From Escherichia coli (GTDB taxonomy: Bacteria > Pseudomonadota > Gammaproteobacteria > Enterobacterales > Enterobacteriaceae): DNA of 64,000 nucleotides. The translations under genes were made by a program, and so were the position numbers. Positions 16,257 to 19,679 of the stretch are shown one piece after another. The first letter of the stretch is position 1; each line of letters begins with the position of its first letter. The stretch lies in NCBI RefSeq assembly GCF_024298765.1, contig NZ_CP101210.1; one strand, written 5' to 3'. The notes under the pieces were generated by a model. The model did no database searches. It saw only the letters and a list, made by a program, of their open reading frames with translations, and was not told the origin of the DNA.

Positions 16257-17036
16257 TTAGTAGCTGCTGGCGCTCTTACCGTCACCGTGGCCCAGCGCTT
16301 TCAACAGGCTTGCCAGCAGGCTGGAAGCACCAAAGCGGTAGTGACGCGCATCTGCCCAGTCAGCACCGAACAGTTCATCTGCGATGGCGAGATATTTCTG
16401 CGCATCTTCCGCAGTACGCACGCCGCCCGCTGGTTTGAAACCAACGGTTTTTTCTACGCCCATATCACGGATCACTTCCATCATGATGCGCGCGCTTTCC
16501 GGCGTCGCGTTCACAGCCACTTTACCGGTAGAGGTTTTGATGAAGTCCGCACCCGCTTTGATGGAGATTTCAGACGCTTTACGGATCAGCGCTTCGTCTT
16601 TCAGTTCGCCGGTTTCGATGATCACTTTCAGCAGTACATTCGCTGCCGCGCAAGCCTCTTTACAGGCTTTCACCAGGTCAAAACCAACCTGCTCGTTACC
16701 CGCCATCAGCGCGCGGTACGGGAACACAACGTCAACTTCATCAGCACCGTAGGCGATTGCCGCACGGGTTTCTGCCAGCGCGATTTCGATGTCATCGTTA
16801 CCGTGTGGGAAGTTGGTTACCGTAGCGATTCGGATTTCCGGGGTGCCCTGCTCTTTCAGCGTTTTGCGAGCAATCGGGATAAAGCGAGGATAGATACAGA
16901 TAGCGGCGGTATTGCCGACCGGAGTTTTGGCCTGATGACACAGAGCAATTACTTTCTCGTCGGTGTCGTCGTCATTCAGGGTGGTCAGGTCCATCAATTT
17001 CAGTGCACGCAGGCTGCTTGCTTTCAGATCAGTCAT
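16257..17036 (-). CDS. deoC: deoxyribose-phosphate aldolase DeoC
   Basis: start set at MTDLKASSL (259 aa); ORF extends to 17060. Confidence 0.9.
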
Positions 17037-17080
17037 TTCATTCTCCTGGCTTGTCGCCAATAAAATTCACCTTGCGAGTT

Positions 17081-17096
17081 TGTTAGTATTCTAACA
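17081..17096. promoter_or_regulatory. DeoR operator O2 (deoP2)
   Basis: tgttagtattctaaca, 16-bp near-palindrome 45 bp upstream of deoC. Confidence 0.75.
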
Positions 17097-17293
17097 TCTA
17101 CTCCGCAACACACTTCGATATACATCACAATTAAGGAAATCTACTTACAAGTTTGCATCACTGTAATGCGATCTGGTTCAAATAATTCACTTTCAAATGA
17201 ATGCGTCAGTGGTGGCAAACGCATCAGGATCAAAGTGAACATCACGAAACTTCTTACAATGGCGCATCACCTTCGGCATAAAAGGAAAAGAAG

Positions 17294-18844
17294 ATGCCCA
17301 CTTCTCATGAAAATGCACTGCAACAACGTTGCCAGCAAATTGTCACCAGCCCAGTGCTTAGCCCGGAGCAGAAGCGCCATTTTCTGGCTCTGGAAGCAGA
17401 AAACAATCTGCCTTATCCGCAGCTTCCTGCCGAAGCCCGCCGCGCGCTGGATGAGGGTGTAATCTGCGATATGTTTGAAGGTCATGCGCCGTACAAACCG
17501 CGCTATGTCTTACCCGATTACGCCCGTTTTCTGGCGAACGGTTCCGAATGGCTGGAGCTGGAAGGCGCGAAAGATCTTGATGATGCACTCTCTCTGCTGA
17601 CCATTCTTTACCACCACGTACCATCGGTCACATCGATGCCGGTCTACCTGGGGCAACTGGATGCGTTGTTGCAACCGTATGTTAGAATTCTAACACAAGA
17701 CGAGATCGATATTCGAATAAAACGTTTCTGGCGTTACCTCGACAGAACCCTGCCAGACGCCTTTATGCACGCCAATATCGGCCCGTCTGATTCGCCCATT
17801 ACCCGCGCGATCTTACGTGCAGACGCAGAGTTGAAGCAGGTTTCACCGAACCTGACCTTTATCTACGATCCTGAAATCACCCCTGATGACCTACTGCTGG
17901 AAGTGGCGAAGAACATCTGTGAATGTAGCAAACCGCACATCGCCAACGGTCCGGTGCATGATAAAATTTTCACAAAAGGGGGCTACGGGATTGTGAGCTG
18001 TTACAACTCACTGCCGCTGGCGGGTGGTGGCAGCACGCTGGTACGCCTTAACCTGAAAGCCATTGCCGAGCGCAGTGAATCGCTGGATGACTTCTTTACA
18101 CGCACTCTACCGCACTACTGCCAGCAGCAGATCGCCATCATCGATGCGCGGTGTGAATTCCTCTATCAACAATCACACTTCTTTGAGAATAGCTTCCTGG
18201 TGAAAGAAGGGCTGATTAACCCTGAACGTTTTGTGCCAATGTTTGGCATGTACGGATTGGCGGAAGCAGTTAACTTACTGTGTGAGAAAGAAGGAATTGT
18301 CGCACGTTACGGTAAAGAAGCCGCTGCAAATGAAGTGGGTTATCGCATCAGCGCGCAACTGGCGGAGTTTGTCGCCAATACCCCCGTGAAATATGGCTGG
18401 CAAAAACGCGCCATGCTACACGCACAGTCGGGGATCAGTTCCGATATTGGCACCACGCCGGGTGCACGCTTGCCGTATGGTGATGAGCCAGATCCGATCA
18501 CCCATCTGCAAACCGTCGCCCCGCATCATGCTTATTATTATTCCGGCATCAGCGACATTCTGACGCTCGACGAAACCATCAAACGTAATCCGCAGGCGCT
18601 GGTACAGCTTTGCCTCGGTGCCTTTAAAGCCGGAATGCGTGAATTTACCGCCAATGTCAGCGGTAACGATCTGGTTCGCGTTACCGGTTATATGGTGCGT
18701 TTGTCGGATTTAGAAAAATATCGCGCCGAAGGTTCACGCACCAACACCACCTGGCTGGGAGAAGAAGCCGCACGCAACACTCGTATTCTGGAACGCCAGC
18801 CGCGCGTGATAAGCCATGAACAGCAGATGCGCTTTAGTCAGTAA
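17294..18844 (+). CDS. yjjI: YjjI, glycine-radical-enzyme-like protein (DUF3029)
   Basis: 516 aa, divergent from deoC; the 5' part overlaps deoP1/O1/OE if the first ATG is the true start. Confidence 0.85.
17680..17695. promoter_or_regulatory. DeoR operator O1 (deoP1)
   Basis: perfect palindrome tgttagaattctaaca, centre exactly 599 bp from O2 as in the literature. Confidence 0.75.
17959..17974. promoter_or_regulatory. candidate DeoR operator OE
   Basis: tgataaaattttcaca; centre 878 bp from O2 and 279 bp from O1, matching the published spacing. Confidence 0.5.
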
Positions 18845-19679
18845 GATTATCCCCTTCTCCTGCGTTGACGGGCCAGGCAGTCGTCTGGCTCTGTTTTTGC
18901 AGGGCTGCAATCTGCGCTGCAAAAACTGTCACAATCCGTGGACGATGGGGCGCTGTAATGATTGCGGAGAGTGCGTGCCGCAGTGTCCGCATCAGGCGTT
19001 GCAGATTGTTAACGGCAAAGTGGTGTGGAACGCTGTGGTTTGCGAGCAATGTGATACCTGCCTGAAGATGTGCCCGCAACATGCCACGCCAATGGCGCAA
19101 TCCATGAGCGTGGATGAGGTGCTTAGCCATATCCGCAAAGCAGTGCTGTTTATTGAAGGGATAACGGTGAGCGGCGGCGAAGCCACGACCCAGCTGCCGT
19201 TTGTGGTGGCGCTGTTTACTGCCATCAAAAACGATCCGCAACTGTGCCATCTCACCTGTCTGGTGGACAGTAACGGTATGTTGAGCGAAACCGGCTGGGA
19301 AAAATTACTTCCGGTGTGCGACGGCGCAATGCTCGATCTCAAAGCGTGGGGGAGCGAATGTCATCAGCAATTAACCGGACGCGATAATCAGCAGATTAAG
19401 CGCAGCATCTGTTTGCTTGCCGAGCGCGGCAAGCTGGCAGAACTGCGTTTGCTGGTAATCCCTGGCCAGGTGGATTATTTGCAACACATCGAAGAACTGG
19501 CGGCGTTTATCAAGGGACTTGGCGATGTTCCGGTACGCCTGAACGCGTTTCATGCCCACGGCGTGTATGGCGAAGCGCAAAGCTGGGCGAGCGCCACGCC
19601 GGAAGATGTTGAGCACCTGGCTGGCGCTTTACAGGAGCGCGGGGTGAGCCGGTTGATATTTCCGGCGCTATATTTGTGA
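18816..19679 (+). CDS. yjjW: radical SAM glycyl-radical activating enzyme YjjW
   Basis: 287 aa with Cys-rich 4Fe-4S motifs; overlaps the yjjI 3' end. Confidence 0.85.

Follow-up and report, generated by a model that had tools for sequence, protein, structure and literature searches.

Evidence that deoP1 and the DeoR operators O1 and OE are written in codons of the divergent gene yjjI in Escherichia coli

The deoCABD operon of Escherichia coli is controlled by DeoR through three operators, O1, O2 and OE, in a well-described DNA-looping system (Valentin-Hansen et al., 1986; Dandanell et al., 1987; Amouyal et al., 1989; cited from PMC8053113 and PMC5326754). We analyzed a stretch of 64,000 nucleotides of the E. 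coli contig NZ_CP101210.1 (assembly GCF_024298765.1), hereafter the window, and found that it very probably carries the canonical deoCABD control elements, with the promoter deoP1 and the operators O1 and OE situated inside genuine codons of the divergent gene yjjI, the same bases being selected twice, as codons and as protein-binding DNA. The deo system is well established, and the overlap is visible in any annotated E. coli genome; what is new here is the quantitative comparative evidence for a dual constraint, together with a set of natural controls. In the literature that we searched we found neither a mention of the overlap with yjjI nor a link between DeoR and this gene. One review reads as placing the looping operators of E. 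coli outside genes (PMC4217526), whereas O1, OE and P1 are in fact inside yjjI.

The deo operators and the yjjI reading frame

The genes annotated by RefSeq at this locus are deoC, yjjI and yjjW, and together with the three operators they are arranged as follows (coordinates are those of the window).

17081..17096, strand unassigned: operator O2, TGTTAGTATTCTAACA (TGTTAGAATACTAACA on the deo strand), one mismatch to the palindrome, equal to the published O2 (PMC5326754)
17680..17695, strand unassigned: operator O1, TGTTAGAATTCTAACA, a perfect palindrome and exact match in yjjI codons 129-134 (Y V R I L T), equal to the published O1
17959..17974, strand unassigned: operator OE, TGATAAAATTTTCACA (TGTGAAAATTTTATCA on the deo strand), in yjjI codons 222-227 (H D K I F T), assigned by position and conservation
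17294..18844, plus strand: yjjI, coding sequence of a YjjI-family glycyl radical enzyme of 516 aa (PF11230, TIGR04040, codon-position entropy about 0.26/0.15/1.2 bits)
16257..17036, minus strand: deoC, coding sequence of deoxyribose-phosphate aldolase and first gene of deoCABD (open reading frame; Pfam PF01791, E 5e-49; RefSeq)
18816..19679, plus strand: yjjW, YjjW-family glycyl-radical activase, overlapping the 3′ end of yjjI by 29 nt (TIGR04041, E 2e-119)

A sequence-only reading of this DNA had proposed the operator triad at these positions and had observed that yjjI, read from the ATG at 17294, would cover deoP1, O1 and OE, and both claims are borne out by our results. The operator centres lie at 17088.5 (O2), 17687.5 (O1) and 17966.5 (OE), which gives, as had been stated, 599 bp between O2 and O1 and 878 bp between O2 and OE, and leaves 279 bp between O1 and OE. 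In the published layout some 600 bp separate O1 from O2 at the tandem promoters, and OE is about 300 bp farther upstream (PMC8053113), in agreement with the 599 bp that we observed from O1 to O2 and with the position of OE 279 bp beyond O1. The letters of O1 and O2 are identical to those quoted from the primary literature in PMC5326754, while OE was compared with the literature by position only. The 16-bp palindrome TGTTAGAA.TTCTAACA is exact at O1 and present in a one-mismatch form at O2, and when we searched the 64 kb for it allowing up to three mismatches, O1 and O2 were the sole matches (0.14 expected; two or more in 0 of 100 shuffles). Within the reading frame, O1 runs from the last base of codon 129 to the end of codon 134, and OE likewise from the last base of codon 222 to the end of codon 227.

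The region is by no means particular to this isolate. The segment 16200-19700 is 100% identical to several complete E. coli genomes, the region was found in 5422 of 5426 complete genomes of the species, and 16257-19679 is collinear with MG1655 at 97.4% identity, the operators having the coordinates 4617263-78 (O2), 4616664-79 (O1) and 4616385-400 (OE) in that strain. The 516-aa yjjI is likewise annotated in the identical E. coli genomes and in MG1655. To place the locus in a wider frame, we gathered 80 orthologous loci spanning Escherichia to Proteus and aligned the 74 complete yjjI genes among them by codon; deoC is the divergent upstream neighbour of yjjI in 69 of these 74 loci. An O2-like site is present in the 69 deoC-linked loci, and O2, which is outside any gene, is kept in the same species as O1 and OE. 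The distance between O1 and OE is constant at 279 bp, set by the reading frame, and that between O1 and O2 is 596-604 bp in 57 of the 69 loci, with outliers at 568, 589-592, 612, 626 and 675 bp. We make no claim about helical phasing of the O1-O2 distance, as shared ancestry and plain conservation of length both confound the Rayleigh statistic, which is nominally significant. Among the proteins collected, one of 574 aa (P0004), from a 2.9-kb contig, has both YjjI-like and DeoC Pfam domains and is probably an artefact of assembly or gene calling across the divergent pair.

Synonymous variation and coding function of yjjI

The dual constraint is most apparent at the synonymous sites. We scanned the 70 of the 74 aligned genes that have operators in windows of six codons, over 482 degenerate codons with a mean third-position entropy of 1.17 bits, and the lowest windows were the following.

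Codons 129-134, rank 1: O1, 0.05 bits
Codons 222-227, rank 2: OE, 0.12 bits
Codons 507-516 (18816-18844), rank 3: yjjI/yjjW overlap, 0.24 bits, taken as a positive control
Codons 141-146, rank 4: deoP1 -35 / A+T-rich region, 0.32 bits

When the per-codon third-position entropy values were shuffled 20000 times, the values of O1 and OE were never reached by any window, and P was 0.004 for the P1 -35 region. None of the six third-codon positions of O1 varies among 38 species, and they hardly vary among 70. The low entropy of the overlap with yjjW fits a constraint imposed by the start of yjjW or its ribosome-binding site, and the likeness to the operators is plain: in both cases a second function suppresses synonymous variation, and the same scan detects both. 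The second reader differs, being a ribosome or a second reading frame at the overlap, and a DNA-binding repressor and RNA polymerase at O1 and OE. Apart from these windows, codons 296-301 (18179-18196) show mildly reduced synonymous variation (0.49 bits), which is not significant against the shuffles.

Moreover, several orthologous loci serve as natural controls. In P. mirabilis the genes upstream of yjjI are smp, serB and radA, not deoC, as checked with Pfam, and in four of four Proteus loci there was no deoC-like start upstream of yjjI and no operator. The three aligned Proteus species have the peptides YVG(E/N/S)LT and QDAVFG at the corresponding positions, with synonymous differences between species. 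The yjjI of Providencia, which has neither a deo neighbour nor the operators, also varies freely at the operator codons. By contrast, an Enterobacillus-like locus in which deoCAB is adjacent has O2, O1 and OE. A further locus, which we call L084 (1817-4551 of a Logan contig, SRR31913104), has yjjI divergent from deoCAB, and no DeoR-type palindrome was found in it within 7.5 kb; one match with four mismatches falls within yjjW, and at the places of O1 and OE the peptides have diverged. The DeoC of this locus is about 81% identical to that of Providencia. Taken together, the pattern in Proteus, Providencia, L084 and the Enterobacillus-like locus indicates that the constraint tracks the operators, and neither the needs of the protein nor adjacency alone. 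The OE segment is variable in the more distant orthologues (QQQAFDE, HAEFFAQ, HSAAFDE), and where the operator is present it is nearly fixed as (H/N)D(K/N)IFT.

Frozen synonymous sites could also arise from codon bias, translational pausing or structure in the yjjI mRNA, the operator-like sequences outside E. coli then being incidental. This explanation may draw on the fact that several of the fixed codons (AAA, GAT, TTC, ATT) are also common, and on the operators of other species being candidates by sequence. However, AGA, CTA and ACA are fixed in O1, as are CGA and ATA in the P1 -35 region, and elsewhere in the same genes AGA makes up 3.4% of Arg codons, CTA 3.5% of Leu, ATA 5.7% of Ile, CGA 5.3% of Arg and ACA 9% of Thr. 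These are the rarest codons of the genes, and they are fixed only here. Since the frozen codons are rare elsewhere, codon bias cannot explain the pattern. The constrained windows, moreover, match the 16-bp operators and the P1 -35 region base for base, operator-less orthologues vary freely at the same codons, even in amino acid, and the intergenic O2 is conserved in the same species, all of which makes such a cause very unlikely.

The sequence-only reading had left a choice between a coding sequence that doubles as a regulatory region and a yjjI that truly starts downstream of the operators, and our results settle on the former: synonymous entropy is low at O1 and OE, and rare codons are fixed there. 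Were the start to lie past 17974, P1, O1 and OE would belong to an untranslated upstream region, and some database entries for E. coli YjjI are indeed shorter (476, 452 and 402 aa). Nevertheless, the match to PF11230 takes residues 22-504 over profile positions 1-485 of 485 (E 5e-220), and that to TIGR04040 takes residues 11-504 over positions 1-497 of 497, with 787 bits against a cutoff of 498, so that both full profiles include the N-terminal part carrying O1 and OE. Codon-position entropy, computed in 38 Enterobacteriaceae, was 0.28/0.19/1.23 bits at positions 1/2/3 before O1, 0.26/0.11/1.18 from P1 to OE and 0.25/0.12/1.20 after OE, a strong three-base periodicity that extends from codon 22 to past OE, whereas the deoC-yjjI intergenic spacer is flat (0.90/0.97/0.96). 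At the yjjI start, A331 and T332 are invariant and G333 nearly so in 44 aligned species, and the Shine-Dalgarno sequence (AAGGA/GAGGA) is conserved as well. The orthologues of Proteus and Providencia, with 65-72% identity, also align from the N-terminus. A start downstream of 17974 is therefore excluded by the profile coverage, the codon-position entropy and the conserved ATG and Shine-Dalgarno, and we see practically no room for it. It might also be argued that yjjI is decaying or non-functional and is kept merely as a spacer with deo control elements, given its poor aerobic expression. We hold this to be extremely improbable: codon positions 1 and 2 are strongly purified along the whole gene in 70 species, the reading frame of 516 codons is intact, with an RVTGY glycyl radical motif near the C-terminus of YjjI and the gene of its cognate activase, yjjW, immediately downstream, yjjI is activated by FNR, and the region is present in nearly all complete E. 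coli genomes.

Several observations weigh against the dual-constraint reading or narrow it. OE has four mismatches to O1, and two such sites occur in the window where about 2.05 are expected, so that as a sequence match it is at chance level; we assigned it because it lies 279 bp from O1 and shows near-total conservation of synonymous sites in 70 species. A scan with consensus promoters called neither P1 nor P2, both of which have poor -35 hexamers. The aligned species are related and their entropy values are not independent samples, although a comparison of site against site within one alignment is internally controlled. L084 shows that adjacency to deoC alone does not force the operator arrangement, and the function of the operators rests on the literature together with their conservation. 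Even so, we consider the dual constraint on O1, OE and deoP1 highly probable.

Promoters, regulatory proteins and the proposed mechanism

Besides the operators, we annotated the following elements between deoC and codon 147 of yjjI.

17088-17093, minus strand: deoP2 -10, TAGAAT, inside O2 (from the sequence)
17687-17692, minus strand: deoP1 -10, TAGAAT, inside O1, with a TG extended -10 (from the sequence; the predicted P1 start is near 17680)
17710..17733, minus strand: deoP1 -35 / A+T-rich upstream region, yjjI codons ~140-147 (I R I K R F W R), with low synonymous variation; its -35/UP role is presumed from the distance to the -10
17164..17185, minus strand: conserved block, putatively deoP2 CRP site 2 / CytR region after the deoP2 literature
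17115..17130, minus strand: deoP2 CRP site 1, TGTGATGTATATCGAA on the deo strand, conserved in the alignment and identical to a 16-mer found by CRP chromatin immunoprecipitation sequencing (ChIP-seq) in enterotoxigenic E. coli (ETEC)
17220..17260, plus strand: putative yjjI promoter, conserved, with the FNR-type half-site ATCAA at 17229-17233 (site 17220-17233) and the -10 TACAAT at 17255-17260
17282..17296, plus strand: yjjI Shine-Dalgarno AAGGA (17282-17286) and ATG (17294-17296), conserved

CRP site 1 is centred about 41.5 bp from the predicted P2 start, and the identical 16-mer was called under an ETEC CRP ChIP-seq peak between yjjI and deoC (PMC4287617). The window differs from MG1655 at one base of this site, 17121, and also at 17711, within the deoP1 spacer/-35 region, where codon 140 is Ile here and Val in K-12. 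ETEC CRP ChIP-seq also gave a peak inside yjjI, with the MEME site CGTACCGTCGGTCACA, for which the window reads CGTACCATCGGTCACA at 17618-17633. We rejected this segment as a fourth conserved element, as its codons show normal synonymous variation (1.6-1.9 bits); the peak may arise because the segment comes close to O1/P1 in the loop, and not from direct binding. A promoter-like match on the plus strand overlaps OE at 17940-17967 (TCGCCA, a 16-nt spacer, TAAAAT and an upstream TG), one such match being found where 1.0 was expected.

As for yjjI itself, a GGATCAAA block and a TACAAT/TACACT hexamer are conserved across genera in the deoC-yjjI spacer, and the spacing of ATCAA and TACAAT would fit a class II FNR-dependent promoter, although the left half of the putative FNR site is poor (CGCAT vs TTGAT). 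An FNR ChIP peak has been reported about 93 bp upstream of the yjjI ATG (PMC3688515), which places it about 25 bp from the putative site, and activation of yjjI by FNR is documented (PMC3688515; PMC2634741). In a hupA mutant in exponential phase, the expression of yjjI and yjjW was 0.03-0.05 of the wild type (PMC2634741, Table). HU assists some repression loops, and the hupA effect might be connected with the loop around the yjjI promoter.

On the reading that we favour, deoCABD is served by tandem promoters, deoP2 adjoining deoC and deoP1 599 bp upstream, each with its -10 TAGAAT within a DeoR palindrome, and a third, weaker operator, OE, stands 279 bp past O1. DeoR represses P1 and P2 by binding pairs of operators as a multimer and looping the DNA between them, with deoxyribose-5-phosphate as the inducer, and CytR and CRP further control P2 (PMC8053113; PMC5326754); at the natural spacing, the predicted extent of O1-O2 looping in vivo is about 72% (PMC8053113). 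The elements deoP1, O1 and OE are written in codons 129-147 and 222-227 of the FNR-activated yjjI, which is transcribed away from deoC, and the double selection is visible in synonymous positions and rare codons that are frozen only where deoC adjoins and operators exist. It follows from the coordinates that the yjjI promoter and 5′ coding region fall inside the O2-O1 and O2-OE loops, and that transcription from deoP1 is antisense to yjjI over the first ~390 nt of the gene and passes across its promoter. O1 and OE are also in the path of the RNA polymerase that transcribes yjjI, and we infer that the expression of yjjI may be altered by the loops or by transcription from deoP1.

The deo and yjjIW genes together and apart

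To set this arrangement against its relatives, we looked at deo loci that lack yjjIW, in which the gene order is yjjU-yjjV-(nupC-like)-deoCABD. Mangrovibacter, two Enterobacteriaceae-like contigs and Pantoea have two operator-like palindromes 142-175 bp apart, both intergenic. The distal palindrome of these compact pairs is located just past the upstream gene, in some cases with a TATAAT, and the strongest case has the distal palindrome TGTTATAATTATAACA with TATAAT inside. The Rahnella deo locus without yjjIW has one operator-like site, and in that of Providencia we found no such site. The positions of the compact pairs upstream of deoC, by contig, are given below.

L085, 3234 and 3401: palindrome pair upstream of deoC
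L088, 3219 and 3394: palindrome pair upstream of deoC
L090, 3228 and 3388: palindrome pair upstream of deoC
L086, 3302 and 3444: palindrome pair upstream of deoC

Judged by sequence, the compact pair looks like a short version of P1/O1-P2/O2, and the long-range, gene-embedded form and the compact intergenic form would be alternative states of one switch. A search for a relic of a distal operator in the yjjW-yjjV spacer of E. coli (19680-19895) yielded only repeats resembling repetitive extragenic palindromic (REP) elements; the spacer consists of two near-identical units of ~100 bp with REP-like GCCGGATGCGGCG...CCGGCCTAC palindromes. A gene for a NupC-family nucleoside transporter was found by the deo/yjjIW cluster on five contigs.

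L082, 5410-6687: NupC-family nucleoside transporter gene
L084, 5427-6704: NupC-family nucleoside transporter gene
L085, 1949-3226: NupC-family nucleoside transporter gene
L087, 1673-2968: NupC-family nucleoside transporter gene
L088, 1930-3207: NupC-family nucleoside transporter gene

This nupC-like neighbour occurs in several taxa and not in E. coli, and yjjIW, where present, is then flanked by nucleoside genes on both sides.

The overlap raises the question of whether the two systems are coupled in function. DeoR bound at O1 or OE, together with the loop to O2, could block or trap RNA polymerase on yjjI while convergent transcription from deoP1 interferes, which would make yjjIW part of the DeoR regulon, and YjjI may then serve anaerobic nucleoside or deoxyribose metabolism. 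The geometry favours this, as O2 and O1 bracket the yjjI promoter region (17220-17260) and both O1 and OE are in the transcribed region, and so do the extent of looping predicted in vivo, the persistence of the yjjIW-deoCABD neighbourhood in 69 of 74 loci and the NupC-family transporter that also flanks it in some taxa. Nevertheless, published co-expression puts yjjI with FNR and nitrate genes and not with deo (PMC3228777). Furthermore, yjjIW is found without deo in Proteus and Providencia, and deo without yjjIW in Pantoea, Rahnella, Mangrovibacter and others; since each occurs alone, their adjacency may be mere inherited gene order. We therefore regard a functional coupling as tentative and, on present evidence, rather unlikely. 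Doubtful too, and somewhat more speculative, is a possible origin for the arrangement, in which the distal half of the deo system (deoP1, O1 and OE) was built from existing yjjI codons once yjjIW met deoC. An ancestral Y-V-G-x-L-T would have been turned into TGTTAGAATTCTAACA by synonymous choices and a Gly-to-Arg change, relatives without yjjIW would have kept a compact intergenic switch (mostly two sites 142-175 bp apart), and, in reverse, anaerobic expression of yjjIW would depend on DeoR occupancy, through a roadblock or loop, and on convergent deoP1.

Auxiliary operators within coding sequence occur elsewhere in E. coli, as in the case of lac O2 within lacZ and gal OI within galE. The deo arrangement resembles lac O2 and gal OI in that a distal looping operator is placed in codons and the same bases serve both protein and regulation. 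In lac and gal, however, the operator is in the first gene of the regulated operon and on the same transcript, while in deo two operators and a whole promoter are in a divergent neighbour of unrelated function and the regulated transcript is antisense to yjjI. As to the three-operator looping system of E. coli deoCABD, the locus described here is the same one, with operators at the -10s and upstream of deoC, and the system itself is no different.

Our results leave the accepted view of how the deo system works unchanged. Among the founding cases of repression through DNA loops, the deo operon is commonly depicted with operators that lie in non-coding DNA. Regulation of deo would be disrupted by deleting yjjI or optimising its codons, and the phenotypes of yjjI knock-outs could be deo effects. 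Likewise, the widely used deoP1P2 expression cassette includes ~390 bp of the 5′ coding sequence of yjjI, up to deoP1. Finally, the locus offers a clean, checkable bacterial case of a regulatory code laid over the genetic code, with the signature of double selection at single-base resolution across 70 genomes.

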